NCBI GenBank assembly: GCA_021736645.1
Contig: JAIPFM010000051.1
Coordinates: 2,513 to 66,512, forward strand
DNA length: 64,000 nucleotides
Direction: 5' to 3'
Source: Phycisphaerae bacterium
GTDB lineage: Bacteria > Planctomycetota > Phycisphaerae > Sedimentisphaerales > Anaerobacaceae
In this document: one piece after another, positions 18,936 through 40,447 of the stretch
Position numbering within the stretch: the stretch's first letter is position 1
Layout of the letters: each line of letters begins with the position of its first letter
Notes under the pieces: model-generated
What the model was told of the DNA's origin: nothing
Databases searched by the model: none
What the model saw: the letters and a program-made list of their open reading frames with translations, nothing else
Program-made: the position numbers and the translations under genes

Positions 18936-18993
18936 GTACCTAATATTGTTTTTGATTCACATGGGTGATTAGCACAGGATAGGGTGGTCTTTG

Positions 18994-21900: not shown

Positions 21901-23031
21901 CCGGACGGGACCGTGCATCCCAGAGCCGCCGTTTTCACGGACGAAACCACCGAGGCGGCGGTCATCATGCGCGGCGCCACCTGGAAGTATCTGGACAACG
22001 GTTCCAATCAGGGCACGGCCTGGCGAGAGGCGGATTTTGATGACAGCACCTGGCTGGCCGGCCGTGCGCCCCTGGGCTATGGAGATGGGGACGAAACCAC
22101 AGTGGTCGGGTATGGCCCCAATGCGGGCAGCAAATATCCAACCACCTACTTCCGGTCCACGTTCAACGTGGCGAACCCTGCAAGCCTCACCGAATTGACC
22201 CTGGGCCTGGTGCGTGATGATGGCGCTGTCATTTATGTCAACGGTGTGGAAGCCACGCCGCGTATCAACATGCCTGGAGGTGACATTGATTATCTCACCT
22301 GGGCATCGGGTTCAGGCGTGCCCGTGGGCGGTGCGGATGAATCAACAATGTACCCCTACGAGATCGATCCTGACCTGCTTGTGCCTGGCACCAATGTCAT
22401 GGCTGTGGAGATTCACCAGGCCAATGCCGGCAGTTCGGATATCAGCTTTGATTTGGAACTCACCGGATTGATGGCCAGCGCGGCTTCAGTGCCCATCATC
22501 CTGGACCGTACTACCATCGTGAACGCCAGGGTGTACAGTGGGGCACAATGGGGTGCCCTGGCCCGCACGCGATTCACCCTGGGTCTGGATGCCCTGGTCC
22601 TCAATGAAATCATGGCCAGCAACCTCACGACTCTGGAGGACCCTGGTGAGGCCGGCGAGTATCCCGATTGGATCGAGATCTACAATGGTTCAGCCTTCAC
22701 ACTGGACCTGGATGGCATGTTTCTGACGGATGACTTATCCAACCTGACCCAGTGGCAGATCGCGCCAGGCACGCGTCTCGGCGCAGGTCAGACCATGATC
22801 TTTTTTGCGGACAGTGATCCTCTGCAGGGCCCCAACCACATGAGCTTCAAACTCAGCAGTCAAGGCGAGACCCTGGCCCTGGTGGATACGGACGGTGTCA
22901 CCATTCTGGACTCAGCCGACTTTGGCATTCAAACGGATGACATCTCCTACGGTCGGTTCCCGGACGGCATGGACCCATGGGACTATCAAACGAACCCGAC
23001 ACCAGGTTTGCCGAACATGGCATCACCCTAA
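18994..23031 (+). CDS. giant secreted CotH-family (atypical kinase) protein with N- and C-terminal lamin-tail (LTD) domains, a CHB_HEX_C-like module and jelly-roll modules
   Basis: Signal peptide. LTD 'VINEFLAYND...DWIELFNPT'. CotH core '...RDVFSRDVQRDMGRPYTRSRYYHLYLNGQYWGLYQTEER'. Second LTD 'LVLNEIMASN...DWIEIYNGS'. Confidence 0.85.
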   Translation: MKYRVFQSFSFGSVWVCAVLGMMLMLAEALAQVPVINEFLAYNDSALPLEGGERLDEDGDASDWIELFNPTTEVIDLQGWSLTDDAGDLTRWALPQVDLWPGHFLVIFASGKDRMNPSTGLHTNFRLSRVQGFLALVHPDGQTMASSFEYPGQLRNVSYGRVEVAPSLGEILVSEGAQATVGLPLMAMQDDTWTEPDYNDSAWLSTTTGVGYGYDDVLGFEIEFLRYLSPGLFCRIPFEVSDPAEYVRLLLRMKYDDGFVAFLNGLPVASANAPGPDQLAWDSLALSRHDNAMALMYEEFVLPQAGLDALRTGHNVLAIHQLNVTVDSAGLLSLPELWAQRSEDIEQDLPKQGYMVRPTPGSVNAAGSLDFVRDVTFSAAHGFYEDAFALTLTTITPSAQIRYTLDGSTPTLTHGQIYAGPIIMDHTTVVRAVAFKQDYLTSNVRTQTYLFAADVAVQSPKGEAPAPDWPDRNVNGQVLDYGMDPDVVNNPRWADLMEEALLSIPTLSLVTDLENLFDPRTGIYVNPGNDGLAWERRTSVELIDPDGTPGFDQDAGLRIRGAFSRSKSNPKHSFRLFFRSDYGAGKLAYPLFGSEGGREFDKVDLRTSQNYAWAFEGSTQNTFLRDVFSRDVQRDMGRPYTRSRYYHLYLNGQYWGLYQTEERADADFAESYLGGRAQDYDVIKNDSSSSRALQATDGTMEAYRRLYNAAKAGFASKQAYMAIQGLRPDGTPDPAGERLLDPENLMDYMICTYYTGDPDAPVSCWGHFSNNVFAIYNRVTSQGFTWYRHDAEHSLGANGGLNEGRLLTDPTDRMIGSQWQHFNPAWLHVRLCDNPDYLAQFTDRVAGYFTNDGLLTASHNIARWMARAEQIDLAVIAESARWGDAKRSSPLTRDDWQAQTDSMVNTYFPNRTDIVINQMRSVAMFPEPALVSFNQSGGGIVPGFQLLMSQSNGTPGSIYYTLDGSDPRLPDGTVHPRAAVFTDETTEAAVIMRGATWKYLDNGSNQGTAWREADFDDSTWLAGRAPLGYGDGDETTVVGYGPNAGSKYPTTYFRSTFNVANPASLTELTLGLVRDDGAVIYVNGVEATPRINMPGGDIDYLTWASGSGVPVGGADESTMYPYEIDPDLLVPGTNVMAVEIHQANAGSSDISFDLELTGLMASAASVPIILDRTTIVNARVYSGAQWGALARTRFTLGLDALVLNEIMASNLTTLEDPGEAGEYPDWIEIYNGSAFTLDLDGMFLTDDLSNLTQWQIAPGTRLGAGQTMIFFADSDPLQGPNHMSFKLSSQGETLALVDTDGVTILDSADFGIQTDDISYGRFPDGMDPWDYQTNPTPGLPNMASP

Positions 23032-24167
23032 GAGGACTGCATGGATGCGGATCTGCGATCGCTTATGGTCTGAAGCGCTGCCCAAAGCAAACCGCAGACA
23101 AACCCGCCAATATGGGAAAACCAGCCAATACCGCCACCCTCAGTGTCCGTGGTGAGCATGCTGCTCAGGATTTGAAGGCCAAACCAGCCCAACAGATAAA
23201 ACACGGCAGGGATGTCCCAGATGAAACCCCACACATAGGTCTTGATGCGAGCCATGGGGAAGAACACCACATAAGCCCCCATGATGCCTGAGATGGCACC
23301 GCTGGCTCCAATGCTCGGCACAGTGGGGTCCGACGCGGTGACTGCATGCAGGATTGAGCCAGCCAATGCACTGGCCAGGTAGAGCCCGAGAAATTTCCAC
23401 CACCCCAACCTGTCTTCAATATTGTCTCCAAAGAGCCACAGAAAAAGCATGTTGCCCAGCAAATGCCAGAGGCTCCCATGTAGAAACGTCGAGGTGAACA
23501 GTCCAATGCCAAAGAAGTGGCTTGGGAGAAATCCAAACTGCGTCACAAAGCTCTCCACATCCTCAACCCATACCATCTGGCCCGCAAATACCAGGCAGCA
23601 CAACACAATCAGACTGATCGTGGCCCATGGTACGATGTCACAGGTTTCGTCATCTCCAAGCGGAAGAATGAACTTGGGCAAAAACATGAATCGAAGCAGA
23701 GAATTGCGAGTGCGGACTCCAGGGGGACTCAGGTTCTTGATCTTCTGAGACTCATGAACCTCCTCTGCCAGCGCCTGCCCCAGCGCAGCAGCCTTCGGGT
23801 CAGGTTTGACATGTTGCGCGATACGCACGGCCTTTCCTTCATCCGTCCAGATGCCCTCACAGGTCGGGCAACGATCCACAAACACGTTGGAATCATACGC
23901 GTAGTTGAACGCACGCATCGTGACATGGCAGCGCGGACATGTTTTGGGCAGGGCATTCAATTCCCGCTGAACATGGACTTCACGCCGCTTGAACAACTGA
24001 GTTTGGGTGGGTTGAATGTCCCCACTCTGAGACAGGGCCTTGACATAGGCGGGTAGCATTCCTGGATCAAACCACATGCCCCGGCAGGTCGGGCAGCTGT
24101 GAACCTCGCACCCAAGCAGGGACATGACATCCAAAGGGTCTGAGCAGGCAGGGCAGTGCATCGGCAT
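23028..24167 (-). CDS. rhomboid-family intramembrane serine protease with two N-terminal zf-TFIIB-like zinc ribbons
   Basis: Two 'CPxC...CPTC(R/E)G(M/I)W(F/T)D' ribbons. Rhomboid core with 'GASGAISG' (catalytic Ser) and 'HIGGF' (catalytic His). Confidence 0.85.
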   Translation of the reverse strand: MPMHCPACSDPLDVMSLLGCEVHSCPTCRGMWFDPGMLPAYVKALSQSGDIQPTQTQLFKRREVHVQRELNALPKTCPRCHVTMRAFNYAYDSNVFVDRCPTCEGIWTDEGKAVRIAQHVKPDPKAAALGQALAEEVHESQKIKNLSPPGVRTRNSLLRFMFLPKFILPLGDDETCDIVPWATISLIVLCCLVFAGQMVWVEDVESFVTQFGFLPSHFFGIGLFTSTFLHGSLWHLLGNMLFLWLFGDNIEDRLGWWKFLGLYLASALAGSILHAVTASDPTVPSIGASGAISGIMGAYVVFFPMARIKTYVWGFIWDIPAVFYLLGWFGLQILSSMLTTDTEGGGIGWFSHIGGFVCGLLWAALQTISDRRSASMQSS

Positions 24168-24183
24168 CTCTCAGTGACTCCTA

Positions 24184-24651
24184 TCAATCATTGGACCTGG
24201 AGGTACGCCGCCACATGAGCACCACCAACCAGAAGATGAAAACCCAGTTCGGCGTGTCCATCGAATCAGGAAGGTCCAGCACACAGGCTCGTGTCAGGAG
24301 ATGGTTGGGACGAATGGTACCGACAATCGTGCCGTGCTGGGTCAACTGAAATGTACGTCCGAACGGTGATCTGGCAGAGAGGATCATTGACTGCCCCCGG
24401 ATCTCGAGTCTGAATGTTCTGGTAAATGGACTGGTTTTTTTGGCACGGGCCATGGCCTGATCGTTTCGTGTCAGAAGGAAATCACCGGACCAGAATCCCT
24501 CCCTGCCCAAGTGAAACTGGGCATCGTTCCACTGAAATGTGCCCCCTTCCCTGAGCCATTTCAGGGTCAGGGTTGCCAGAAGGATCTCGTCCTCAAACAA
24601 ATCAAATCCCCAACTCAACATGTGTCTGGGTCTGGCTTTAAGTATTGACAT
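24184..24651 (-). CDS. hypothetical protein (PH/GRAM-like soluble region plus C-terminal TM helix), first gene of the rhomboid operon
   Basis: ORF sits 17 bp upstream of the rhomboid gene. The GTG at 24660 overlaps the repeat array, so the ATG at 24651 is preferred as start. Confidence 0.45.
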   Translation of the reverse strand: MSILKARPRHMLSWGFDLFEDEILLATLTLKWLREGGTFQWNDAQFHLGREGFWSGDFLLTRNDQAMARAKKTSPFTRTFRLEIRGQSMILSARSPFGRTFQLTQHGTIVGTIRPNHLLTRACVLDLPDSMDTPNWVFIFWLVVLMWRRTSRSND

Positions 24652-24655
24652 ATGC

Positions 24656-24722
24656 TTCACGGTTCACGGTTAAAGGGTTCACGGTTAAAGGATTCACGGT
24701 TAAAGGATTCACGGTTCCGGAT
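24656..24722. promoter_or_regulatory. array of TTCACGGTT boxes (one overlapping partial copy plus four full copies at exact 15-bp phase: TTCACGGTTAAAGGR)
   Basis: Direct repeats start at 24663, 24678, 24693 and 24708, with a partial copy at 24656 and an extra degenerate copy at 24828-24836. The array abuts the start of the 24184-24651 gene and follows the end of the giant-ATPase operon. Confidence 0.7.
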
Positions 24723-24851
24723 AGTGGCCACAGAAAAAGAACTTATCATTCTAGTTGTTCGTTTGAAGATCACCACTTCATCACGCGTTTCACCATAGGC
24801 CTGATTAGTGTCACGGGTTGTGTGACGTTCACGGTCCTCTCCTTTGGATCG

Positions 24852-25115
24852 TCAATGCCGTTCAGGCAATGCCGGCCACTTTGCAAATGCGATATAAAAA
24901 GGCAATACGATATTGGCAACCGGTACGAGCATCAGCAGAGACAGGACGCCTGGAAAACCGGCCTTGGAACAGATCTTCCAAAAGGGCAGCACTGTCAAGA
25001 GTGAAACGCCCACTGACACAAACAGGGTGATGAGCAGGATCACGATGATTTCAGTGCCTCCCACCACGGGAAAACTCATTGTCGGTTCCATAGCGCTAAT
25101 CTCCTGATTGGTCAT
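24852..25115 (-). CDS. small two-TM membrane protein (PLDc_N-like?)
   Basis: Hydrophobic 87-aa ORF. 4-bp overlap with the upstream DUF4177 gene. Confidence 0.5.
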   Translation of the reverse strand: MTNQEISAMEPTMSFPVVGGTEIIVILLITLFVSVGVSLLTVLPFWKICSKAGFPGVLSLLMLVPVANIVLPFYIAFAKWPALPERH

Positions 25116-25381
25116 GACAATTGTCGTTTAAAAATGACAACCACGTCGCGTGTTTCGCCATAAGATTTATTCGTGTCAAATGCTGAAACAAGTTCCCACC
25201 CCTGACGTCCCAGATCATTCATAAAAGCATCAAGTGTTGACTCATCAAATTTGCCACCCAAAAATCCAGTGGCCGCAAGTTTTATAGTTTTGTATTCCCA
25301 TTTTGCATTCATAAAAGTCCTTTTATAATGAGCCGTTTCACGGGCTGATTCAATAGATCCCTCAATGCTTCGAGATGACAA
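25112..25381 (-). CDS. DUF4177-domain protein
   Basis: 'WEYKTIKLAATGF...LGRQGWELVSA' matches the DUF4177 pattern. Confidence 0.6.
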   Translation of the reverse strand: MSSRSIEGSIESARETAHYKRTFMNAKWEYKTIKLAATGFLGGKFDESTLDAFMNDLGRQGWELVSAFDTNKSYGETRDVVVIFKRQLS

Positions 25382-25541
25382 GTCGTGGTGTACGGTTGCT
25401 CTTGTTGATTCACCTCGACTCTGTCATGCCGCCTGTCCCTTGGGGGAACGTACGTGAGACATCTGTTGAAACAGCATTGCGCAGCAATTCAAAATCCATT
25501 CAAAGTTCTCGGTTCTAAGTCCTAGGTCCCGCGTTCCATCT

Positions 25542-28500
25542 TTATCCCTCAGTCTTGGGCGGCTTCCTCTTCCCTTCAGCCTTCCGCCTTGCCCCTCGGG
25601 GGCTTCCACTCCCCTGGGGACCTGCGGCTTCAGCCTTGTTAACTGATCCCTGATCCCGAACTCCTGACCCCTGTTTTTTCGCATTCAGCACCTCGATCAG
25701 TTTCTGATACCCCTTGACCATGCCCTCGAATCGCTGCGTGAGTTCCCCTATGACCTTGTCTTTGTCTTTTCTCTCGCCGTGAGTCATGGGCATGAGCCAG
25801 GTCTCCATGGCGTGGAATTGTTCTTCCAGGACTGCCACGAGGTTATGTGCGTCCTGGGTCTGCTTGAGCGTCTGCTGCGTCTTGGCCAGGTCAGTCTGAA
25901 GGGTCTGGCTGTGTTTCACTTCCTGGATGAGTTGAGTCATTTGAGCGAGGACGGCTTGGGCGGTTTGTTTGAGGTCGTTGGTTTCTGCTGCGGGTTTTTG
26001 GGGTGAAGCCATGGATGTGACGCCTGTAGCAATGGCGTCCTTGATGTGGTCCAGGCCCTGCGTGACGCTGGTGAGTTGGCCCATGAGGCGGGTCATGCTG
26101 TCCGAGCCTTCACCCCCGAGCAGGAGGTTGCGCTGGAATGTCTTCTTGATGTCATTCCAGCGTTGAGTGTGTTCTTCTGTGAGACGGCCCACGAGTTCTC
26201 GGAACTTGAGGAGGTTGGCTTCTGCACCGCTGGTGAGTGTCTGTGCGTCCTGTTCGTAGGCAGAGACAATCAACGTCCAGAGTTCTTCGTCATTCATCAT
26301 GGGCAGGACTCGCCCGCCGATGCGGTTCATGTTTCTGTAAGAGCCCTGGAGCAGGAAGGGCGGTTCCGTGCGGTAGGCAGAGGACTGGCCTGCGGACCGG
26401 ATGTACTCGGTATTGACCCTGAGCACCACGTCGCGCACCACAAAGAGCTTTTTCATGCAGGCCACATATTCCGCAATTTCTTCGACTGTGTAGTTGCCTT
26501 CAAAGTCGATGCCTTCCTGGGATCCGGTTTGAGCGATCTTCATGATGGCGTACGCGTCTGTCTGGCTGCGGCGCGTGAGACCTTCCAGCACGGGATTTGA
26601 AATGAGGCAGTTTTCGATGTAGCTCTGCGCGAACGGGTCGTAATTGTCGCCCACAATGTCACCGATGTTGTACGTGTCTGCGCGGTTGGCGAGCATGTCC
26701 GGGATCTTGAAGCGTTCGCCGCTTTCCGTGTAGGGGTTGCCTGCCATGATCACGCACACGCGCTTGCCCCGCAGGTCGTACGTGCGGGGCTGGCCCCTGA
26801 ACACGCCCTCCACGCGCCGCTGCGCATCGCACAGGGAGATGAACTTCTGCAGGAACTCGGGGTTGGTGTGCTGGATGTCGTCCACGTAGATCATGACATT
26901 GTCGCCCATTTCAAAGGCGAGGTTGAGCTTGTTGAGTTCTTCGCGTGCCGTGGCATTGGGCGCCTCAGCCGGATCAAAGGACAACACGCGGTGGCCAATG
27001 GCAGGGCCGTTGATCTTCATGAAGGTCAGGCCCAGGCGGTTGGCTGTGTATTCCATCAGCGTGGTTTTGCCATAACCGGGCGGGGAGATGAGCAGGAGCA
27101 TGCCCTGGTGGTCGGTGCGTTTGGTGACACCTTCTGCCCCGATCTGCTTGGCCAGATTGTCACCGATCAGGGGCAGGTAGATCTTGTCAATGAGCTGATT
27201 GCGCACGAAGGTGGTCATCACACGCGGCTTGAAGTCCTCCAGATGCAGTTTCTGGCTCATGCATTGGACAAGGGTATTGCGCAGGGTCTGGAACTGATGG
27301 AACCTGGGGACTGTGTGCGTGTCGTGGTGGCGCAGACGCGTCATGAAGCGGCAGTAGTGGAGTGCGTACACCTGGTCTTGGATCCGGGCGTGCGAACCGA
27401 CCATGTCCGGGATCTCGCACAGGACGCTCTGAAGGATGACCTGGCGTTCTGGAAAGTCACCCGGCAGGAGCAGGGCTGCGAGTTCGTCTGCGTATTCGGC
27501 CTGGTCCCGGCCCATCAGAAAGGATCTGGTCCAGTCACGGATCACACGCAGGCACTGAACTGGCGAGTCTGTGAGATCTTTGATGGACTGGGCAAAGGCC
27601 TGCGTATACTGCTTGGCAGCCAGGTGCTGCTCAAAGGTCTGCTTGAGATCCAGAACAGTTTTGTCTGTGACAAACGCAGGCCCCTGACAGAGTTGGTGGA
27701 ACAGGTACTCGGCTGCCTCTGCCACGAGAGTATCAGCGAAGAGATGGGTGTCCTCAATGAACTGCTGCAGATTCATGCGCAGTTCCTGAAGGTAGCTGTC
27801 CAAGGCATCGCCCGTGCCAAACAAACTGTGGGCGTGACCCATGCCGGTGATCTTGGCAGACATGAGGTCTCTGGTCGGTAGATCAGCCAGATGCCAGAAG
27901 GCCCAGGCCAGTGTGCGTGCCGAGGTACTGTAGCGGAGCAGGCCAATGGCCGGTTCCAGTGTGAGCAGGCCCTTCAGGATCAGGGCTGCATCATGGTCGT
28001 GCACGCCCTTGACATACCCTTCGTTATAGCGTGGGCCCATAAAGGTCTGCACGCGATGTGTGATGTCTTCGACGGAGGACTTCCTCAGGGGTTCGACTTC
28101 AGAGGCTGCCAGGGACAAACGCATGACATAGGCCAGGTATTCGGCACGGTACACATCCAGTGTTTCAGACGCGACCTCCAGGTGCCACACATCCCGGGTT
28201 TCATTCAGAGTCTCATCTTCGATCCGTTCAAAAAAGCCGGTGCTGGTCAGGTGAAAAAAGAAACCATCATCCTTTTGTACGAGCGTGCCGGTCAGGGTCT
28301 GCTTGTTCACGCTGAACCGATGTACTCCCAGACGGATGAGTGTGTCACCGTCTTCGTACAGGGCGAGTCGGTCTTTGAGCTGGCGCACGACATCCTGGTG
28401 GATGGTCTTGAGGCGTCCCTTGATGTCATCCGCCTTGACTGAGTCACCCAGGTCCGTGAGCTTGGCAATGGTGTCACGCACCCGTTCGATCATGATGTCC

Positions 28501-30899
28501 GCAGCAAAGTAGCCGTTGATCTCGTTGATCGTCTTGAACGCCTGGACCCGGTTGTCGATGCCCTTGAGGATGCGTTCGGCTGAGGCCATCAGGGCAGAGG
28601 CACGCTGGTTGCGTTTGGCTGTGAGCTGGACCTTGCGTGATTCAAAGGCATTGTACAGTTCTTCACGTTTGTCTGCCAGGGCCACGATAAAGTCTTCAAA
28701 GTCAGCAAAGCGGCCTTCCAGATTTTCCAGCGCGACCATGGTCTTGGACAGGTATTCGTCACACTTGTCCGGCGTGTCACACACGTCCAGCGTGTTGATC
28801 ACGGACTGGTCAATGAGCTTGAGCTGGGAAGCAAACTCGGCCTGGCCCTCCACGCGACCGATCTCGTTGAGCTTATTTTTGAGTGCGGATTTGACCTGGT
28901 TGACCTTGGCGTACACCAGGGAGATGTTTTCAATAATGGTGATGGTCTGGGTGGCATCCTCGATCTTGAGGTTGCTGACAATGTCTGTGAGCATCTCCAG
29001 GTCTGACGCGGTGCGGCCCACCTCTTCCTGCAGGGCCCTGGCATCCGTGACCTTGGCCAGTTCCGGGACCTGCCGGTTCTGGGTCTCAATGGTTGAAATA
29101 TAGGGGGTCAGGGCATCGGGTTCCAGGAGGAATTCCACGCATTTCTGAGAGAGCGTGTCTGTCTGCTCAGCCACCTGGGTGTCGATCAGGCCAATCTGAG
29201 TGATGTCTGCATAACGCAGGTCACGCAGGGACACGACCTCCCCGCGAAGCGCGCGCAACTGGCTGAGGTGTTCCACAAAGGGGGTAATGCTGTTAAACTC
29301 GCTCAGGTCAATGGCACGAAGGACCTCCGCCACCTGGGTCGTAACACGGTCGATTTCGGAACGCGTGTGGGCCTTGGTACGCTGGACCTTTTCGTATTCC
29401 TCAACCGCGGCGTCCGCAGCCTGTTTGATGGCCCCAAGCGGCTCATTGAGCTGGAACGTCTCTGGCGTGTTGATCCAGAAGTAGGTATCAACAATGTCCT
29501 CTGCCTTGCGCCCGATATCCAGGTACAGGTTGGCGTAGGTGTCTTCCTGGTCTATGAGGTTGAGTACTTCAGTACATTCTGCCATGCAGCGGACAATGTC
29601 CTTGTTGCCGATCTTGTGGAGATCGGATTCTGTCTGTACTGGAATGATGAAATCCGCGCCGTAGTAGGGCGTTTGCCAGATCTGGATCACGTGATGCTTT
29701 TTGGCCTCGTCGTCAGCCCGGAAGTAGCAGAGCTTGCCGTCCTGAAAGAATGAATAGCCGTTGCACACCACGGGCGTGGCGATCTTCTGTTCAATGAGGT
29801 TGTACGACAGGAGCACATACACGCCGCTTTCGCGGTTATAGAAGATGTAGAGATAATCCTCGCCATTCGGGCTGATCACGCGTTTTTCAAAGACCATGGC
29901 CCGCATGTCTGTCTCGAATTGCTTGAATGCCCCGGTGAGCAGGTAGTAGCCCTTGGGGAAGATCAGGCCATGACCTTCAGGCAGGAGCACGCATGCCTCC
30001 TGAATGGCGTCCAGGCGAAAGGCCTGTTGGACCTTTTCATTATACACAATGTACCGGAAGGTCTTTTCCTCATAAGGCCGGATCTTGAGCAGGATCACAT
30101 TGCCCACGGTGGCAAAATAGATCTCCGCGTCACTGAGTGTCTGGTCCGCATTGTCCACAGGCTCGGAATAGATGCCTTCGCCGGTTTCCGTGTTGTCTTC
30201 GATCTTGATGGTGAGGTCGCCGCCCACGGTCTCCACAAACACGCGGTCATTAATGGAGATGTGCGGATAGCGGCCCTCGTGGAACATGTCCTGGGTGGTT
30301 CGCCGCCATTCAAACTCGTGCTGCGAAGGGAACCGGAACTCGTGATCACTGCGGTTGTCCAGGTATTCCAGACGATCGCCGCGTATCAGCCATTTGAAGG
30401 TCTTGACATCCTTGACGTCACGGCCCACACGGAACACCATGAACAGGTGGTGGCCGATCACTGCAAACTTGGTGAAGGTGGTGCGTTTGTAATATCTGTA
30501 GAGATTCTTGAAGTCTGCCAGAAACTGTGGGTTCTGGATGAGATCCAGGGGGCACGTGGAAAAACTATTTTCCTGCCACGCATACACGGCAAACACGTCT
30601 TCCAGCGTGGTCTCGTTGCGCAGGCCCACGAATACATTGTAGCCAAAGAGAAAAGCGTCCCCTATGGGCACCATGTCACGCGGTACGCAGTTATTGTCCG
30701 TGGAGATCCGCTCACTGGCCAGGAGCTTGTACTCTACAGCTCCAAACGCGTTCCTGCGTGCCGCATTGAGCTGATCAATACGCCCGCGCAGCGACTTGCT
30801 GTGGGTCTTCAACCGATTCTGAATGATCTCGTACGCACCACCGCGGAGCACGGGTTCATCGTCAGGCTGCTTCGGTTCATTTATTTCGTTGTCTGCCAT
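25542..30899 (-). CDS. giant (1785 aa) cytoplasmic AAA+ ATPase (MoxR/dynein-like AAA_5 signature, possibly DUF3686-type) with beta-rich N-terminal domain, long coiled coils and K/R-rich C-terminal tail
   Basis: Walker A 'LISPPGYGKTT', Walker B 'VMIYVDDIQHTNPEFLQKF', sensor 'VCVIMAGNPYTESGERFKIPDMLANRADTYNIGD'. No signal peptide or TM helix. RBS GGUGGA before the ATG. Confidence 0.85.
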   Translation of the reverse strand: MADNEINEPKQPDDEPVLRGGAYEIIQNRLKTHSKSLRGRIDQLNAARRNAFGAVEYKLLASERISTDNNCVPRDMVPIGDAFLFGYNVFVGLRNETTLEDVFAVYAWQENSFSTCPLDLIQNPQFLADFKNLYRYYKRTTFTKFAVIGHHLFMVFRVGRDVKDVKTFKWLIRGDRLEYLDNRSDHEFRFPSQHEFEWRRTTQDMFHEGRYPHISINDRVFVETVGGDLTIKIEDNTETGEGIYSEPVDNADQTLSDAEIYFATVGNVILLKIRPYEEKTFRYIVYNEKVQQAFRLDAIQEACVLLPEGHGLIFPKGYYLLTGAFKQFETDMRAMVFEKRVISPNGEDYLYIFYNRESGVYVLLSYNLIEQKIATPVVCNGYSFFQDGKLCYFRADDEAKKHHVIQIWQTPYYGADFIIPVQTESDLHKIGNKDIVRCMAECTEVLNLIDQEDTYANLYLDIGRKAEDIVDTYFWINTPETFQLNEPLGAIKQAADAAVEEYEKVQRTKAHTRSEIDRVTTQVAEVLRAIDLSEFNSITPFVEHLSQLRALRGEVVSLRDLRYADITQIGLIDTQVAEQTDTLSQKCVEFLLEPDALTPYISTIETQNRQVPELAKVTDARALQEEVGRTASDLEMLTDIVSNLKIEDATQTITIIENISLVYAKVNQVKSALKNKLNEIGRVEGQAEFASQLKLIDQSVINTLDVCDTPDKCDEYLSKTMVALENLEGRFADFEDFIVALADKREELYNAFESRKVQLTAKRNQRASALMASAERILKGIDNRVQAFKTINEINGYFAADIMIERVRDTIAKLTDLGDSVKADDIKGRLKTIHQDVVRQLKDRLALYEDGDTLIRLGVHRFSVNKQTLTGTLVQKDDGFFFHLTSTGFFERIEDETLNETRDVWHLEVASETLDVYRAEYLAYVMRLSLAASEVEPLRKSSVEDITHRVQTFMGPRYNEGYVKGVHDHDAALILKGLLTLEPAIGLLRYSTSARTLAWAFWHLADLPTRDLMSAKITGMGHAHSLFGTGDALDSYLQELRMNLQQFIEDTHLFADTLVAEAAEYLFHQLCQGPAFVTDKTVLDLKQTFEQHLAAKQYTQAFAQSIKDLTDSPVQCLRVIRDWTRSFLMGRDQAEYADELAALLLPGDFPERQVILQSVLCEIPDMVGSHARIQDQVYALHYCRFMTRLRHHDTHTVPRFHQFQTLRNTLVQCMSQKLHLEDFKPRVMTTFVRNQLIDKIYLPLIGDNLAKQIGAEGVTKRTDHQGMLLLISPPGYGKTTLMEYTANRLGLTFMKINGPAIGHRVLSFDPAEAPNATAREELNKLNLAFEMGDNVMIYVDDIQHTNPEFLQKFISLCDAQRRVEGVFRGQPRTYDLRGKRVCVIMAGNPYTESGERFKIPDMLANRADTYNIGDIVGDNYDPFAQSYIENCLISNPVLEGLTRRSQTDAYAIMKIAQTGSQEGIDFEGNYTVEEIAEYVACMKKLFVVRDVVLRVNTEYIRSAGQSSAYRTEPPFLLQGSYRNMNRIGGRVLPMMNDEELWTLIVSAYEQDAQTLTSGAEANLLKFRELVGRLTEEHTQRWNDIKKTFQRNLLLGGEGSDSMTRLMGQLTSVTQGLDHIKDAIATGVTSMASPQKPAAETNDLKQTAQAVLAQMTQLIQEVKHSQTLQTDLAKTQQTLKQTQDAHNLVAVLEEQFHAMETWLMPMTHGERKDKDKVIGELTQRFEGMVKGYQKLIEVLNAKKQGSGVRDQGSVNKAEAAGPQGSGSPRGARRKAEGKRKPPKTEG

Positions 30900-30926
30900 C
30901 TATCCACCGCCGTTGGTATGAAGGTA

Positions 30927-30984
30927 GGAAGGTAAGAGGATAAGAAGGTTGGCGACATCCTGCCTTCTTCGATTCTTACCTTCC
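30927..30984 (-). promoter_or_regulatory. intercistronic RNA hairpin (11 + 7 bp stem with internal mismatch, 14-nt loop) between the flotillin stop and the giant-ATPase start
   Basis: GGAAGGTAAGAGGATAAGAAGG and CCTTCTTCGATTCTTACCTTCC form an imperfect inverted repeat. It lies in a purine/pyrimidine-skewed tract full of CTTACCTTCC repeats. No U-tract. Confidence 0.4.
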
Positions 30985-31009
30985 TCACTTCTTATCTTCT
31001 CAACCTCGC

Positions 31010-32992
31010 CTATTTCTTACCTTCCAGCCCCAGTGTGCTGGCCTTGACGTGGCCAATGCCGAGCTGCTTGACTTGATCGAGCATCGTGGCGAGCACGCCT
31101 TTGTCGTCGTCATCGGCCTTGGCCATGAGCTTGACCATGAGGGCTGAGATGGTGAGGTTTTTGAGGTCCTGGCTGGTCACGCCGAATCTGGACACGAACT
31201 GCTGAATCTTCTGGCGCGTGGCCTCTGCATCTTCACCCAGGAATGTGTCCTTGAGGTCTGTGAGCACGGCGCTGTTGTCCACCATGCGGTCCACGCTCTT
31301 GCCTGTGGTGATGGAATTGACAAGGCGTTCGAAGAATTGATTTTCGCCGCCCACAATGTCGATCTTGGCGGACTTGAGGGCCTCGCCCACCAGCTTGGAC
31401 TGCTCTGCGGCAATGTCTTTGCGTACGTTGATTTCTGCCAGTTCGATCTGGATGTCCTTGTTGAGGTTGAGTTTGAATTCTTCGTGGTCTTTGCCCACGG
31501 CGTCGAAGATCTTCATGGCTTCGGCCTTGTCGCGGATACCATCAGCTTCCGCGTGGTACTTCATCTCCATGACCTTGGCCTCTGCAGTGCCTTCCTTTTC
31601 CAGGGCCACGGCCTTGAGTTCCGTGACTTCCGCTTCGGCTGTGCCTGTCACGGCCTGCTCCTTGACAGAGGCAGTGGCCAGGACCTTCTTGGCTTCCGCA
31701 TTCTTCACGGCTGCCTCCTGGTTGGCCTGGGCCTCGATGATGACCTGTTCTGCGTAGAACTCCTGGGCCTTTTTGGCGGCTTCGGCCTTTTTGATGTCCT
31801 TGACCAGGGCCTGTTCTGCTTCTTCTTCGGCCTTGGTGATCTGAACCTTTTTACTACGGTCCGCACTGGCAAATTCGCGAACATCCTTGATGCGTTCTTC
31901 TTCTGTGGCCACCAGTTTTTCCACCATCACGCGATCCTTGATCACGGTTTGGAGTTCTTTCTTTTCGACTTCCACGACCTTGTCTCTTTCGACCTGGGCG
32001 ATTGTGACCACACGCTCGCGTTCCGTGGCTTCCAGACCCCGGTCGCGTTCCACGCGTTCGGTCTCAACGGCGTCCGTGCGTTCCTTGTTACGCGCTGCCA
32101 CGATGATCTGACGCTGCTTGTTCTCTTCTGCTACGGCCAGTTCCTCATCGGTGGTAATACGGGCCTTTTGTGCCTTTTCACGTTCTTCCTGCTGGACCTT
32201 CATGGTGTCGGCCTCTTCGCGTGCCTGGACACTGGCGATCTCGCGTTTCTGCTTTGCCTCAGCTTCTGCGAGTTGCTTATTCAGTTCCAGGATGGCCTCC
32301 TTGGCCTCCACGTTTTGCTGCGTGATGGTCTTGTCTTTTTCACGCTCACGTGCATTGGCCATTTCATACTGAGCTGCCGTCAGGACCGTAATCTTCTTGA
32401 TACCCTCTGCATCCAGGATGTTGTCCGGGTTGAGCAGCTGCTTGTCCGTCTGCTCCAGGTAGTCAATGGCCGCGTCTTCCAGGATGTAGCCGCTGAGGTC
32501 CGTGCCAATGATCTGGAGGATCTGTTCGCGGAATCGCATGCGGTCCGTGTACAGTTCCGAGAAGTCAAACTGCTTGCCCACGGTCTTAAGGGCCTCTGAG
32601 AACTTGGCGTCGAACAGTTCCACCAAAGCATGTTGATCTGATGCTCTTTTACAGCCCAGAGCCTGCGCCACCTGGATCACGTCCTCGACAGTATTGTTCA
32701 CGCGCACAAAAAAGGCCACCACTATGTCGGCCCTGAGGTTGTCCTTGCAGATCAAACCCTGCTGCGCGCGACGGTCGATCTCAATGCGTTTCACGGACAC
32801 GTCCATGTATTCGGCCCTGTGCAGGATCGGAATCACCAACATGCCTGAGAAGCAGACCTTGGTGCCGCCCATGCCGTTCCGGATCAGGGCCTGACCTTGC
32901 AGCACTTTTCTGTAGCATTTGATAAGGACCATGAGGCCCAGCACGATCAAGCCTGCAATGATGGCTACGACTGTCATGACTTCTGTTGGCAT
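31010..32992 (-). CDS. flotillin / SPFH (band-7) family membrane scaffold protein with long EA-rich coiled coil
   Basis: N-terminal TM helix. The SPFH core 'YRKVLQGQALIRNGMGGTKV...SVKRIEIDRRAQQGLICKDNLRADI' is flotillin/YqiK-like. Confidence 0.9.
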   Translation of the reverse strand: MPTEVMTVVAIIAGLIVLGLMVLIKCYRKVLQGQALIRNGMGGTKVCFSGMLVIPILHRAEYMDVSVKRIEIDRRAQQGLICKDNLRADIVVAFFVRVNNTVEDVIQVAQALGCKRASDQHALVELFDAKFSEALKTVGKQFDFSELYTDRMRFREQILQIIGTDLSGYILEDAAIDYLEQTDKQLLNPDNILDAEGIKKITVLTAAQYEMANAREREKDKTITQQNVEAKEAILELNKQLAEAEAKQKREIASVQAREEADTMKVQQEEREKAQKARITTDEELAVAEENKQRQIIVAARNKERTDAVETERVERDRGLEATERERVVTIAQVERDKVVEVEKKELQTVIKDRVMVEKLVATEEERIKDVREFASADRSKKVQITKAEEEAEQALVKDIKKAEAAKKAQEFYAEQVIIEAQANQEAAVKNAEAKKVLATASVKEQAVTGTAEAEVTELKAVALEKEGTAEAKVMEMKYHAEADGIRDKAEAMKIFDAVGKDHEEFKLNLNKDIQIELAEINVRKDIAAEQSKLVGEALKSAKIDIVGGENQFFERLVNSITTGKSVDRMVDNSAVLTDLKDTFLGEDAEATRQKIQQFVSRFGVTSQDLKNLTISALMVKLMAKADDDDKGVLATMLDQVKQLGIGHVKASTLGLEGKK

Positions 32993-33003
32993 AATACTCT
33001 CTC

Positions 33004-33645
33004 CTATTTAGGGGGGACTATAAAATAGATGTTGCTCTTCTGATCTCTCTCGACAATCACGGCCGGATCGTGTTCGTGGAACACGTGGTCGTGTTTGGAA
33101 CGTACATTCAATCGAATGGGCGCGCCCTTGGTATGGACCTCCAACTGGCCCATCAGCTCTGCCGTGACCTGGGTTGTGACCACCAGGCCCTGGCTGCCAA
33201 TCACCTTTCGGGGGGCATTAAAGTCCTTGTAAAACAGGGCATACAGGGGACGCAGAGGCAAAGCCACACACTTGACCACCAGACTGCTGATGGCCACATT
33301 GCAGATAAACACACCCAGGGCCTGGAGTATGTGTTGACCCGGGTTCAGGTAGTAGTTGCCCAGAATGGCAATGGCCCAGAGGCTCAGGATAAAGCAGCTC
33401 AGCAGGACCATGACCGGTATTTCACCCACATGGAACCAGTGGAGTATCCCCCATGCCATGCCTGGTCCCAGATCCACATCAGACCCTGCGTCAAGGTCCC
33501 CGTCCATTTCAGGCATGTCAAAATCGAACAGATCCGTGTCCAGTACGCCCACGATCACCACCAGCCAGTATATGACGATGGTGATGAGTAGCAGCGTAAA
33601 GACCACATTGATCGGAGAGAATGCCAGTTGCATCAACTCAACCAT
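33004..33645 (-). CDS. short NfeD-like membrane protein (YuaF/YqiJ-type partner of flotillin)
   Basis: Multi-TM N-terminus plus a C-terminal soluble beta domain. It ends 11 bp upstream of the flotillin start, matching the conserved nfeD-floT arrangement. Confidence 0.65.
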   Translation of the reverse strand: MVELMQLAFSPINVVFTLLLITIVIYWLVVIVGVLDTDLFDFDMPEMDGDLDAGSDVDLGPGMAWGILHWFHVGEIPVMVLLSCFILSLWAIAILGNYYLNPGQHILQALGVFICNVAISSLVVKCVALPLRPLYALFYKDFNAPRKVIGSQGLVVTTQVTAELMGQLEVHTKGAPIRLNVRSKHDHVFHEHDPAVIVERDQKSNIYFIVPPK

Positions 33646-33901
33646 GATTCGATCCTCTGTTTGCCTTAATATCCACGCTCAATCTCTCAAAAACCCTGAA
33701 AAGGCCTCCGTCAAGACGCCATGCCTTATTCGACTGTATGCTAAGGCTGGACCAGAGACCCGTCAAGGATCAAGTTGGCACTATAGTTTTTACCTCACCA
33801 GACGCCAGACCCAGGAGTCATCCATCTGTTGTGCTTTGAACATCTTTAAGAGAGGACGGTTCTCTATCAGGATTATTCATTGAAACCGCAAAAAAAGAAT
33901 A

Positions 33902-33929
33902 CTTTGGCAAATTAAACACTTTGCCAAAG
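33902..33929. promoter_or_regulatory. perfect palindromic operator CTTTGGCAAA-N8-TTTGCCAAAG
   Basis: 10-bp perfect inverted arms in the divergent nfeD / ykgJ intergenic region. Spacing is incompatible with a sigma-54 -24/-12 element. Confidence 0.4.
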
Positions 33930-33930
33930 C

Positions 33931-34018
33931 GGGTCACAGTTCACGGTTCCAGGTTCACAGTTGACAGAATAAGCTAGTTTTATGGCAGGAAACCGTGAAC
34001 CTTTTTAACCGTGAACCA
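33931..34018. promoter_or_regulatory. cluster of TTCACGGTT boxes in both orientations (same motif as at 24.66 kb)
   Basis: GTTCACGGTTCC at 33939-33950 and degenerate GGTTCACAG at 33952-33960. AACCGTGAAC at 33991-34000 and 34008-34017 are reverse-complement copies. 70 bp upstream of the ykgJ-like gene and about 290 bp upstream of nfeD. Confidence 0.55.
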
Positions 34019-34087
34019 CACTTTTGCTTCCCATAGCTAAAGTGCTGCAGGTATTTCTTTAAAAATCCTGAGACAGGGTGTATAGTC

Positions 34088-34642
34088 TTGGCCATGAATG
34101 AGCAAGAAACGCCACACACAGAGCCTACAGGTGAGCAGTTGACCGAACTCCTGGCCCGCTTCTACAGGGAAGTGGACCAGCGTGCTCAAACCTTGATCGA
34201 TATGAATGGGGATCGATTGCACTGCCAAAAGGGGTGCTACTCCTGCTGTGTGGACGACATCACCGTGTTTCAGGTCGAAGCTGACCATATTCTCAAGGCT
34301 CACGGTGAATTACTGGAAACTGACACACCCCATGATACAGGGGCCTGTGCCTTTCTGGATGGGGAAGGTGCCTGCCGCATCTATGAAAATCGTCCGTATG
34401 TGTGCCGGTCCCAGGGTTTGCCCTTGCGGTGGCTCGATGAAACACCGGACGGACGCGAAGTGGAGATGCGTGACATCTGTCCCCTCAACGATATCGAACA
34501 GGATCTGGAGATCCTGCCCAGCGACCAGTTCTGGATGATCGGCCCGTTCGAAGAGGTGCTGGCCAATATCCAGACTTACGTGGGCCAGGGAGACCTGACG
34601 CGTGTCAAGTTGAGGGATCTTTGGGATAGAACCGGTTCTTAG
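34088..34642 (+). CDS. YkgJ-family (UPF0153) cysteine-cluster protein
   Basis: Hallmark 'CQKGCYSCC' Cys cluster plus additional C-terminal Cys residues. Confidence 0.7.
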   Translation: MAMNEQETPHTEPTGEQLTELLARFYREVDQRAQTLIDMNGDRLHCQKGCYSCCVDDITVFQVEADHILKAHGELLETDTPHDTGACAFLDGEGACRIYENRPYVCRSQGLPLRWLDETPDGREVEMRDICPLNDIEQDLEILPSDQFWMIGPFEEVLANIQTYVGQGDLTRVKLRDLWDRTGS

Positions 34643-34853
34643 TGGTTGGTTGCTGGTTTCCGGAAGGCGGTGCCTATACGAAGCCAGGTATCAGCGATTT
34701 CCTGGTTGTGCATTGGCTTGAGGGACTGTACAATCCTATTCGAGATGTGACTCTTTTTTGACCGCGCCAGTTAATTTGGCCAGTATCCAAGCGACCTTGT
34801 TTTGTCTATTGGCAAAAAAATTCTACATGGGTTCAACATGAGAGGAAGCGGAT

Positions 34854-35789
34854 ATGACCGGGACTAGACTTATTGGATTTGCTTTTGGGCTATTGATACT
34901 GAGCACCACGGCTTTGGGGCAGAATATTTCTCCTGATGAAATCGAGAAGAAGGTTGCAGATTCGTACCAGGCTCTGGACACGTACAAGGCTGAAGGCACG
35001 ATCACCTCGGACATCGGCTCAGGCGGTACTCAGCACAAGCTTGAGACTTCCTTTACAGTTCTCATGAAGAAGCCGAATCTTTATCGGATTACCTGGACAC
35101 AGGCACACAAGTCCACGCCTGGTCTGGAGGCCCAATCTGGTGCTGTGTGGAGTGACGGCACGCAGCCCTATATGTATATGAGCGCGATGCACGCGTATTC
35201 CAAAATGTCCAGTGACGACATGGCCCTGGGCGCGGCCACAGGCATCTCTGGAGGGGCGGCCTTCACCGTGCCTTCGCTTTTTCTACCCGGCTTCATGGGA
35301 CAGCCTCGACCGTTTTCCCTTTTGAGAGAACCCAGAGTTGAAACCGCTGAAAAAGTGGGAGACGAAGAATGCCATGTTCTGACAGGGTCCTCATCTATAT
35401 CAAAAAAAGAGACCTATTGGATTTCTAAGAGCAGCCATCTGATCCGGAAATACGCGCGTTCCCTTGAAGCTCCGGAAGACGGCGGCCCAGTCATACCAGA
35501 ACTGACAGATGAAATGCTAGAGCAGACGCTCACAGCCATGGGGCAGACCGTGACCCCAGAGGCCAAAGAGAACATGAAGCAGATACTGGAGAACTTAAAG
35601 ACGACGCTCAAGACCACAAAGCTCCAGGGGACTTCCACCGAACTGCATGCGAAGGTCTCGTTTCCGAAACTCAGCAAGAGCGACTTCAAGTTTGCCCTGC
35701 CGGAAGGGACAGTGCTCGAAGATTCGCTGTTTGGGGGCATGCTCAAGGCAAACAAGACGGCATCTGACAGGGCCAAGGGTGCGCTTTAA
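34854..35789 (+). CDS. secreted hypothetical protein (LolA-like fold suspected)
   Basis: Signal peptide, GAGGAAG RBS, good coding periodicity. No motif I can name confidently. Confidence 0.45.
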   Translation: MTGTRLIGFAFGLLILSTTALGQNISPDEIEKKVADSYQALDTYKAEGTITSDIGSGGTQHKLETSFTVLMKKPNLYRITWTQAHKSTPGLEAQSGAVWSDGTQPYMYMSAMHAYSKMSSDDMALGAATGISGGAAFTVPSLFLPGFMGQPRPFSLLREPRVETAEKVGDEECHVLTGSSSISKKETYWISKSSHLIRKYARSLEAPEDGGPVIPELTDEMLEQTLTAMGQTVTPEAKENMKQILENLKTTLKTTKLQGTSTELHAKVSFPKLSKSDFKFALPEGTVLEDSLFGGMLKANKTASDRAKGAL

Positions 35790-36694: not shown

Positions 36695-36742
36695 ATTAGT
36701 CTTTAGGCGGTCAATTTGAAGAAGGTTCAATTGAGGTATGTG

Positions 36743-39700: not shown

Positions 39701-40447
39701 TCAACAGACCCTGCATCAGGGCCTCAAACCTCCGTGATTGTGACTGGGAGACGCGGCCACTACGAGATTGATCCAGTCTGGCAGACCGATGACATCACGT
39801 CCTTTGTGGGTCGCATTCAGATACCGTCCTCCGAGGTCACACCCCATGCCACGTATCGTGTCCGCTGTCGCATGAAGGACGACACCGGACGCTGGTCTCA
39901 CTGGTCAGCGCCCGAGCAATTTATGGTGACAGATTCTGTGGCCACGTCCATGCACAGTCAATTGAGAATTACAGAGATCATGTTTAACCCACGCGATCCT
40001 GGCATTGGATCGCCTTATAACAACGATGACTATGAATTCATTGAAGTCACCAATATCGGGTCACAGGTTCTGGATCTCTCTTCCGTGACGTTTACGCAGG
40101 GTATTGACTTTGACTTTATCGAATCAGCCATCACGTCTCTCTCCCCGGGTGACTCCCTGCTGATCGTCGAAAATGTCGATGCCTTTGTGGAGCGATATGG
40201 CACGAGCCTCCAACCCCAGATTGCCGGCGAATTCAAAGGCAAGTTGAGCAATGGTGGGGAGACCCTGCAGGTCGCAGACATGTGGCAGGGCGTGATTCTG
40301 GATTTCACCTATGACGACAAATGGTATTCAGGCACAGACGGTGATGGCTTATCCCTGGAATTGGTCAACGAGGATCTGGGCGCACTCGGACAGGCCGCTG
40401 CCTGGCGAGCCAGTCAGGTCCAGGACGGCACACCGGGCAGTCGTTAA
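36743..40447 (+). CDS. giant secreted LTD-CotH-LTD protein, paralog 2
   Basis: Signal peptide. LTD 'LVINEVHYDPD...EFIEIFNPG'. CotH core with the same 'YHLISRQEDV...RYRARGG' blocks. C-terminal LTD 'LRITEIMFNPRDPG...YEFIEVTNIG'. Confidence 0.85.
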   Translation: MKSGLLSVLLCVFCLFTPAFSQDVQQALVINEVHYDPDVKTELVEFIEIFNPGPSRVSLKDWQIADAVVYTFPDVGIEPDAYMVVAQTPSLVRNKWHNLAANQVLGPFEGKLSNQGEQVTLIDPDGMVVDQVDYQLGFPWPTVGVPLSGPGSGASIQLVNPDLDNDLGGAWRSESPTPGQSNSRVYSLNADLMIRQVKHTPNQPLADEAVVISAKITDPDGFLRVFMQYQVVEPGQYVGLDQIEYQLNWVMVDMHDDGLNGDEQAGDGTFSVLLNAAIQKHRRLIRYRVGAIDTGGQYLTVPYDDDPCPNFAYFVYNGVPAWQGAVRPGQDSPVVYHEHVMNSLPVYHLISRQEDVEASTWRERYGGDEYKWWGTLIYDGEVYDHIRYRARGGVWRYAMGKNMWKFDFNHGHSFQARDDYGKKYNTTWSKLNLSACIQQGDYGNRGEQGMFEAASFRLFNMMGAPASKTHWLQLRIIDETDETGATQYEGDYWGLYMAIEQMDGRFLDEHKLPDGNLYKIEGSGVLNNQGPTAVTNGSDLNRFMSQYRNASEQWWRDNVNLESYYGYRCVVEGVHQGDIGYGKNYFFYLNPETGLWSQLPWDTDLTWAETMYGNGQEPFISQGRIFNQENLDIEYKNRMREFLDLLYNQDQMGQMIEELAAVIHDPHGGLSPVDADRAMWDYNPVMKSSYVNGSKAGQGRFYQAAATQDFPGMIQLMKDYVEYCTNNRRNWMGMGGASMTDVAQDNAIPDTPVIRYAGESDYASNDLFFEVSPFSDPKGQASFAALQWRMAEVEPFSHPGPAAQGPDSTSPGHTLIDAQEIWKYYRGENAPSGSETLWRVPGYDDASWDVGQGPIGYGEAFVQTVLDDMRYNYTTVYLRKAFTVDTDAPIETLTLEVRFDDAIAVWLNGTLVVLNNVAESALAYNAVANGNNEVTDFTPVDLTPFRDLLVQGTNVLAVHLVNLSLTTSSDCFFDARLTLTEGVDDHSTDPASGPQTSVIVTGRRGHYEIDPVWQTDDITSFVGRIQIPSSEVTPHATYRVRCRMKDDTGRWSHWSAPEQFMVTDSVATSMHSQLRITEIMFNPRDPGIGSPYNNDDYEFIEVTNIGSQVLDLSSVTFTQGIDFDFIESAITSLSPGDSLLIVENVDAFVERYGTSLQPQIAGEFKGKLSNGGETLQVADMWQGVILDFTYDDKWYSGTDGDGLSLELVNEDLGALGQAAAWRASQVQDGTPGSR

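Follow-up and report, generated by a model that had tools for sequence, protein, structure and literature searches.

Organization of the locus

We analyzed a stretch of 64,000 nt from contig JAIPFM010000051.1 of a Phycisphaerae bacterium, hereafter the window, in which the feature under study occupies positions 24852 to 33645 on the minus strand. An earlier note, made from the sequence alone, had described five co-directional open reading frames (ORFs) at this place, separated by short gaps and centered on a giant AAA+ ATPase. All five ORFs, together with the gaps and the sequence motifs quoted for them, were found where they had been placed. From upstream to downstream they are as follows:

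33004-33645, minus strand: YqiJ/YuaF-type membrane protein with three transmembrane (TM) segments, called nfeD in the earlier note; 213 amino acids (aa); core gene 1
31010-32992, minus strand: flotillin-type SPFH protein; 660 aa; core gene 2
25542-30899, minus strand: giant soluble AAA+ ATPase; 1785 aa; core gene 3
25112-25381, minus strand: DUF4177 ORF, assigned with Pfam; 89 aa, or 66 aa (25112-25312) from the ATG at 25312; neighbor, not core
24852-25115, minus strand: small 2-TM protein, assigned by hydropathy; 87 aa, or 79 aa from the ATG at 25091; neighbor, not core

When every ORF is taken at its greatest length, the gaps in this row measure 11, 110, 160, and -4 bp. Homologs back later starts for the last two genes, at the ATG at 25312 for DUF4177 and possibly at the ATG at 25091 for the 2-TM gene, and with these starts the gaps become about 229 bp between the giant gene and DUF4177 and +20 bp between DUF4177 and the 2-TM gene. 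The label DUF4177 itself was borne out by a Pfam match of 3.3e-15. By hydropathy, the YqiJ-type protein has three TM segments and the flotillin has one; the 87-aa ORF has two and is thus a small membrane protein as described, while the giant protein contains none, in keeping with its description as soluble.

Three of the five genes are conserved together across phyla

To compare the locus across species, we took 80 cross-species loci from a collection of species-representative genomes by means of an alignment of 31 diverse full-length homologs of the giant protein (alignment A1); at least 584 matching stretches are present in that collection. Contig look-ups contributed six more loci, for a total of 86. 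Orthologs of the neighboring genes were scored by tblastn with the window proteins, and a locus counted as informative when 3.2 kb or more of DNA was available upstream (n = 65).

In 62 of the 65 informative loci, the giant gene is directly preceded by a gene for a flotillin ortholog in the same orientation, and 53 have a YqiJ-type gene ahead of the flotillin. The carriers belong to the Planctomycetota, the Bacteroidota (Hymenobacter, Pontibacter, and many Flavobacteriia), the Verrucomicrobiota, the Desulfobacterota, the Clostridia, and the Fibrobacterota (a metagenome-assembled genome [MAG] of the Chitinispirillaceae). The coupling of a flotillin pair to a giant ATPase, which the earlier note had proposed from this one locus and for which it had suggested a neighborhood check, is therefore a conserved arrangement, with order and strand kept in at least six phyla. 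The subfamily to which the 660-aa flotillin belongs almost always travels with the giant ATPase. In some Bacteroidota and Verrucomicrobiota, small unrelated ORFs of about 120 to 230 aa (clusters c13 and c25) stand between the flotillin and ATPase genes (L015, L023, L025, L024, L044, L065, and L078).

The genes downstream of the ATPase behave differently. DUF4177, the 2-TM protein, and the next two genes, orf158 and a rhomboid gene, had no match in the 80 cross-species loci except for one DUF4177 (L059). Because the small downstream genes are nearly absent from these loci, sequence comparison identifies the conserved unit as the triad of YqiJ-type protein, flotillin, and ATPase and not as a five-gene operon.

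The earlier note had gone further and taken all five genes for one new membrane-anchored mechanochemical machine. The genes are indeed co-directional and closely spaced, and DUF4177 recurs downstream of the ATPase in one close relative (L086) and the 2-TM gene in another (L085). However, among the three close relatives that we compared (L083, L085, and L086, with giant ATPases 83 to 85% identical to that of the window), the two small genes never occur together, and their order differs, mixed with genes of the baeRF (bacterial eRF1-like) family and others. Both are missing in L083, whose giant ATPase is 84% identical, and DUF4177 lies downstream in only 1 of the 80 cross-species loci, both small genes being absent from the other 79. 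With its homolog-backed start, DUF4177 is moreover preceded by the gap of about 229 bp. The comparison thus largely refutes the five-gene machine, to which we now give little credence, and, as judged from these alignments, DUF4177 and the 2-TM gene are lineage-specific neighbors in a variable slot and not core parts.

Domain structure of the giant ATPase

The following regions were delimited in the 1785-aa protein:

29670-30728, minus strand: predicted divergent beta-propeller, residues about 58 to 410, inside DUF3686 (residues 37 to 474); AlphaFold model and Foldseek
28866-29117, minus strand: DUF7902, residues 595 to 678, in the helical/coiled-coil middle region; Pfam and helix-favoring composition
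26640-27122, minus strand: MoxR-like AAA+ core, residues about 1260 to 1420; motifs, Pfam, and model

Pfam matched DUF3686 at 7.9e-188 and DUF7902 at 3e-25, and it reported AAA, AAA_22, and AAA_5 around residues 1263 to 1394; the two families that the earlier note had suggested checking, AAA_5 and DUF3686, are both among them. AAA_3 was not reported at E ≤ 0.1. A sequence search of the PDB with the giant protein returned generic AAA P-loop regions only.

AlphaFold2 modeling of residues 1 to 520, from a 39-sequence alignment, gave a mean pLDDT (predicted local distance difference test) of 88 and a pTM (predicted template modeling score) of 0.86. The model consists of a helix (21 to 52), an all-beta domain (58 to 410), and further helices (426 to 519), and the N-terminal helix and the C-terminal helices together clasp the beta domain. 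In a Foldseek search against the PDB, the recognizable matches among those listed were beta-propellers, namely, the WD40 domain of DCAF1 (6e-8), prolyl oligopeptidase, Vps18, and the kelch protein KLHDC3, with low TM-scores (template modeling scores) of 0.26 to 0.42. On the basis of these matches, the model indicates that DUF3686 is a divergent propeller, in agreement with the annotation by Ravi et al. (see below), and the beta-rich N-terminal domain noticed earlier thus acquires a fold.

The motifs on which the AAA+ assignment had been based were all located. The Walker A sequence SPPGYGKTT spans residues 1272 to 1280 (GYGKTT, 1275 to 1280), VDD lies at 1339 to 1341, with the Walker B DD at 1340 and 1341 within DDIQH (1340 to 1344; about 26877 to 26882 in the window), the sensor-1 motif MAGNPY lies at 1385 to 1390 (MAGNPYT, to 1391), and PDMLANR, which reads PDMLxNR in the alignment, lies at 1400 to 1406. 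These motifs, including the Walker B DD, are invariant over the 31 homologs, which are 29 to 49% identical to the giant protein. A model of residues 1191 to 1620 (pLDDT 88) has the MoxR proteins CbbQ and NorQ as its closest structural neighbors, which backs the description of the core as MoxR/dynein-like, and the module keeps the MoxR features Walker A, sensor 1, and arginine residues. It shows a beta-hairpin at about 1362 to 1375, just ahead of the sensor-1 strand, and no clear hairpin at the helix-2 position.

The coiled coil of about 600 aa described in the earlier note is putative. Residues 421 to 860 are helix favoring by composition, of which 426 to 519 are helical in the AlphaFold model, and residues 861 to 1230 contain conserved, globular-looking motifs in the alignment. 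The Lys/Arg-rich tail pointed out in the earlier note is present (27% K+R in the last 45 aa). It is not a family feature, because matches from the Bacteroidota, Verrucomicrobiota, and Clostridia mostly stop near query residue 1620 to 1690, and the C-terminal helical extension of about 130 aa with its basic tail is largely confined to the Planctomycetota.

An NCBI MAG protein that bears the name "DNA repair ATPase [Phycisphaerae bacterium]" matches the giant protein at 100% identity, and a role in DNA repair is also what the Pfam description of DUF3686 and other NCBI product names imply. These names are all that speaks for such a role. Since Pfam (E ≤ 0.1) reported no SMC, RecN, or SbcC/ABC-type family in the protein, and likewise no nuclease or DNA-binding domain, the name is without support. 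The single P-loop lies in the C-terminal MoxR-like AAA+ module, the fixed partners of the ATPase are membrane proteins, and DUF3686 is unmentioned in the papers covered by our literature search. We consider a DNA repair ATPase scarcely credible. The family so misnamed in databases is broad: the N-terminal 700 aa, used as a query against a library of representatives (50%-identity clusters), matched 942 of them at E ≤ 0.001, and its carriers span six phyla.

The YqiJ-type protein and the flotillin

The 213-aa protein matched Pfam YqiJ_N at 1.6e-6 (28.7 bits against a cutoff of 23). The NfeD domain (PF01957) was reported neither for the whole protein (E ≤ 0.1) nor for its C-terminal 102 aa (E ≤ 1), nor for 21 orthologs (E ≤ 0.01). 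The pair that had been called NfeD/flotillin is present and, as judged from its conserved order and strand, functionally coupled to the ATPase, but its first member carries YqiJ_N instead of NfeD, and because no NfeD domain was found in the protein or its orthologs, YqiJ-type is the safer label.

The full-length 660-aa protein had no match in Pfam. When its N-terminal 214 aa were scanned alone, Band_7 was found at residues 31 to 170 (1.3e-10); the Flot domain reached only an E value of 0.15, below the threshold. The protein begins with a TM segment at about residues 6 to 24, followed by Band_7, a long helical stretch rich in Glu, Ala, and Lys, and a C-terminal domain that is conserved. Its orthologs are 45 to 75% identical across phyla and 53 to 58% identical in loci with the published layout described below. 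Sequence and profile searches of the PDB (E ≤ 0.1) with the flotillin and the YqiJ-type protein came back empty, probably through low-complexity or bias filtering, and are hence uninformative. An antisense ORF of 420 aa lies inside the flotillin gene (31337-32599, plus strand), as it does in other species (cluster c7); the ORF is probably a by-product of the repetitive, Glu/Ala/Lys-rich coding sequence rather than a gene.

The triad is linked to PspA and belongs to a published module

We then clustered the ORFs of all loci and scanned representatives against Pfam for recurrent neighbors. PspA_IM30 genes flank the triad in 22 of the 86 loci (representative match, 5.7e-43), a CesT_Tir_1 gene (1.1e-56) is found in 15, and a divergent HTH_3 (helix-turn-helix) regulator with a weak S24-peptidase match is likewise found in 15. 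In the Flavobacteriia and Hymenobacter, the order is HTH+S24 regulator (divergent), CesT_Tir, PspA, YqiJ, flotillin, and giant ATPase. Two Phycisphaerae-like loci also carry PspA genes: L001 has two upstream and one downstream of the triad, and L084, whose giant ATPase is 68% identical to that of the window, has two upstream and one downstream, with a HisKA_3 kinase and a GerE response regulator ahead.

The earlier note had taken the coupling of flotillin to a giant ATPase to be undescribed. The same operon was in fact reported by Ravi, Anantharaman, Aravind, Gennaro et al. (mSystems 2024; PMC11237479), who count it among the branches of the phage-shock (PspA) envelope-stress systems; it is composed of CesT/Tir, PspA, YqiJ/YuaF, a Band-7+coiled-coil+flotillin protein, and a beta-propeller+coiled-coil+AAA+ ATPase. 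These authors also mention an "abbreviated" type of operon, reduced to the genes for the flotillin, the YqiJ/YuaF protein, and the AAA+ ATPase. Their example is Dokdonia donghaensis ANH61663.1, for which the supplementary table lists a cHTH+protease regulator, CesT_Tir, YqiJ-YuaF, Band-7+coiled-coil+flotillin, and beta-propeller+coiled-coil+AAA ATPase. They propose roles in sub-membrane assembly and remodeling and, for the proteins that partner PspA, favor a "chaperone-like" part in assembly, and they note a phospholipase D-type gene in some operons.

The locus of the window shares with this operon the three core proteins, their order, and their strand, and our Flavobacteriia loci reproduce the published layout exactly. 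It differs in lacking the CesT/Tir-PspA dyad and the HTH-S24 regulator, which makes it the "abbreviated" form, and the ATPases of the Planctomycetota add the C-terminal helical extension and basic tail. The locus is thus a PspA-less member of a known module, whose existence and whose membrane-remodeling hypothesis have already been published; it is one more example of that system and not the discovery of a new kind of system.

The neighborhoods also bear on the suggestion, made earlier, of a defense-type sensor, that is, an anti-phage or abortive-infection system built around the large AAA+ protein. A phospholipase D-type gene is found near the triad in 5 of the 86 loci, and baeRF genes adjoin the locus in relatives, both of which could fit such a role. 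However, a PADLOC scan of the five proteins gave only marginal P-loop matches for the ATPase (E of about 0.003), which we regard as noise, and none for the other four, and the triad is surrounded by ordinary genes encoding CotH/lamin-tail domain (LTD) proteins, a rhomboid, and a transketolase. The identity of the flotillin across phyla and the stable gene order also argue against defense; in our judgment, we know of no defense system with such conservation. A defense function therefore seems very improbable.

A proposed role in membrane remodeling

Starting from what is directly observed, namely, the three genes, their domain content and folds, their conserved order across phyla, and the recurrent linkage to PspA, we infer physical interaction, ring formation, a direction of remodeling (disassembly or assembly), and a stress trigger. 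Taken together, the locus is probably an "abbreviated" envelope-stress module in which the ATPase remodels flotillin assemblies, and PspA assemblies where PspA is encoded, under membrane stress. With the YqiJ-type protein as companion, the flotillin would oligomerize on the cytoplasmic side of the membrane, while the ATPase would assemble into a ring via its MoxR-like AAA+ module and contact the flotillin assembly through the N-terminal beta-propeller carried on long helical stalks. ATP would then be spent on remodeling the flotillin scaffold, on opening it, or on recycling it when the membrane is stressed or under repair, and PspA/ESCRT-III-like polymers would likewise be remodeled where they are encoded alongside. 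Such an activity would be comparable in function to that of Vps4 on ESCRT-III or to the pairing of FtsH with HflK/C. Among the functions offered in the earlier note, envelope remodeling or repair is the one best matched by the recurrence of PspA genes in these operons.

Several observations weigh against this proposal. The 64-kb window contains no PspA, CesT, or HTH-S24 homolog, so that the link to PspA is indirect here. A nearby flotillin is missing from three loci (L019, L021, and L046), one of which, L021, has full 10-kb flanks. The Walker B DD in place of the usual DE could point to slow hydrolysis or a switch-like role and not to a motor. No VWA gene was seen among the annotated recurrent neighbors, and our literature search found no experimental study of any family member.

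The comparison with Vps4 and ESCRT-III (Snf7/CdvB) of archaea and eukaryotes suggests a more specific version of the envelope-stress module. In both cases, an AAA+ ATPase is genetically linked to a polymer of the ESCRT-III superfamily, here PspA, and the proposed logic is that of ATP-driven remodeling of a polymer at a membrane. According to a 2025 review, bacteria appear to lack a Vps4-like ATPase. We tentatively raise the possibility that the giant MoxR-like ATPase is this missing bacterial counterpart, which would disassemble and recycle flotillin scaffolds and PspA polymers by means of six propeller-tipped stalks. If so, a PspA-less triad such as that of the window would have flotillin cages as its sole substrate or would work on PspA from a gene located elsewhere. 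The giant ATPase does not, however, show the combination of a classical-clade AAA domain and an N-terminal MIT domain that marks the Vps4 family.

MoxR ATPases (CbbQ, NorQ, and RavA, with midasin and dynein as relatives) are proteins of about 300 to 500 aa, usually paired with a VWA protein, and have the canonical Walker B sequence hhhhDE. They offer the closest fold to the AAA+ module, with the same Walker A, sensor 1, and arginines, but the giant protein differs in its 1785 aa, its propeller and long helical regions, its flotillin partner, its DD Walker B, and the lack of any visible VWA partner. One may thus picture the same module with the ATPase as a MoxR-type chaperone that, like CbbQ, NorQ, and RavA, would serve the assembly or maturation of the flotillin/YqiJ complex or of its clients, instead of taking polymers apart in the manner of Vps4. 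The structural proximity to the chaperones CbbQ and NorQ favors this view, as do a DD Walker B suited to a slow, switch-like ATPase and the "chaperone-like" assembly roles preferred by Ravi et al. (PMC11237479) for PspA partners. Against it stand the missing VWA/MIDAS partner, the usual MoxR cofactor, in the conserved neighborhood and the recurrent PspA linkage, which resembles the logic of Vps4 and ESCRT-III. We regard a chaperone as doubtful and retain remodeling of flotillin and PspA assemblies as the preferred interpretation.

Two further systems help to place the triad. FtsH with HflK/C, in which an SPFH cage encloses an AAA+ protease, sets a precedent for a dedicated SPFH/AAA+ partnership at the bacterial inner membrane. 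The pairing of an SPFH-family scaffold with an AAA+ machine is the same, but FtsH is a membrane-anchored member of the classical AAA clade with a protease domain, whereas the giant protein is a soluble, MoxR-like ATPase in which Pfam revealed no protease domain. With yqiJK of Escherichia coli and yuaF-floT of Bacillus subtilis, the triad shares the two-gene order and the YqiJ_N and Band_7 domains, while its flotillin is longer (660 aa) and belongs to the ATPase-linked subfamily; to our knowledge, no giant ATPase adjoins these pairs in the model organisms. These comparisons bear on the dynamic assembly and dismantling of flotillin scaffolds and of PspA/ESCRT-III-like polymers in bacteria. An ATPase nearly inseparable from one flotillin subfamily and often encoded in PspA operons is an obvious candidate for the energy-consuming step.

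Downstream genes in close relatives

The genes found downstream of the giant ATPase gene in the window and in the three close relatives are as follows:

Window: DUF4177, 2-TM protein, 3' fragment of a DUF4177 gene (24759-24812), box array, orf158, rhomboid
L086: 279-aa protein, 107-aa protein, DUF4177 (84% identical), baeRF, 155-aa protein (60% identical to orf158)
L085: 79-aa 2-TM protein (81% identical to that of the window), baeRF
L083: baeRF, zinc-ribbon rhomboid (75% identical)

The DUF4177 gene is thus absent from L083 and L085 and occupies another position downstream of the giant gene in L086. DUF4177, the 2-TM protein, orf158, the rhomboid gene, and the box arrays described below are local neighbors outside the module.

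The baeRF genes lie at 14419-15519 in L083, 11991-13094 in L085, and 8478-9578 in L086, with companions that vary (DUF4177, the 79-aa 2-TM protein, or the 155-aa protein), and together with these companions they may form a small lineage-specific module of their own. The window contains no baeRF gene. In the stretch where the three close relatives carry it, just before the box array, the window has the minus-strand fragment 24759-24812, which encodes YGETRDEVVIFKR... and is 94% identical to the C terminus of the DUF4177 protein of L086; the site of fragment and array looks like a scar of a deletion or rearrangement. That orf158 might be a truncated baeRF was considered and rejected, as the two share no similarity and orf158 has its relative in the 155-aa gene of L086.

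The rhomboid protease, which has two N-terminal zinc ribbons (23028-24167, minus strand), is similarly placed in L083 and absent from L085 and L086; its placement is probably a matter of local synteny and does not tie it to the flotillin system. Two very large proteins encoded on the plus strand on either side of the locus (18991-23031 and 36716-40447) contain CotH kinase-like and lamin-tail domains, and a large CotH/lamin-tail-like protein also adjoins the triad in L001.

A promoter-like site and two box arrays

Three further features lie in the intergenic regions at the edges of the unit:

33738-33766, minus strand: promoter-like site, TTGACG, 17 nt, TAGCAT, found by consensus scan about 90 bp upstream of the YqiJ-type gene
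24656-24716: five TTCACGGTT boxes in tandem, the period being mostly 15 bp; the array separates the 2-TM gene from orf158
33940-34015: second box cluster, three exact copies and one near copy in inverted arrangement, upstream of the promoter-like site

A TTGACG...CCTTAGCATACAG stretch is also found upstream of the YqiJ gene in L083 and L085, and the site at 33738-33766 is likely the promoter of the triad, as far as its sequence allows one to judge. An Rfam scan of positions 22500 to 35000 gave sub-threshold chance matches only.

All eight exact copies of the TTCACGGTT box in the 64-kb window fall in the two intergenic regions that edge the unit, against 0.25 copies expected by chance, and near copies lie at 24828 and 33954. 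The boxes therefore do bracket the unit, as the earlier note had claimed, but they are specific to this genome: the array is absent from L083, and L083 and L085 have neither the second cluster, at the corresponding intergenic positions, nor the core GTTCACGG. Because close relatives lack them, the boxes are a feature of this genome and not of the system, and a conserved regulatory site of the operon was rejected, given that the same relatives retain the promoter-like site. The TTCACGGTT boxes might be sites for a regulator or a small repeat element. A strong hairpin with a T-run lies at 33901-33930, after the second box cluster.

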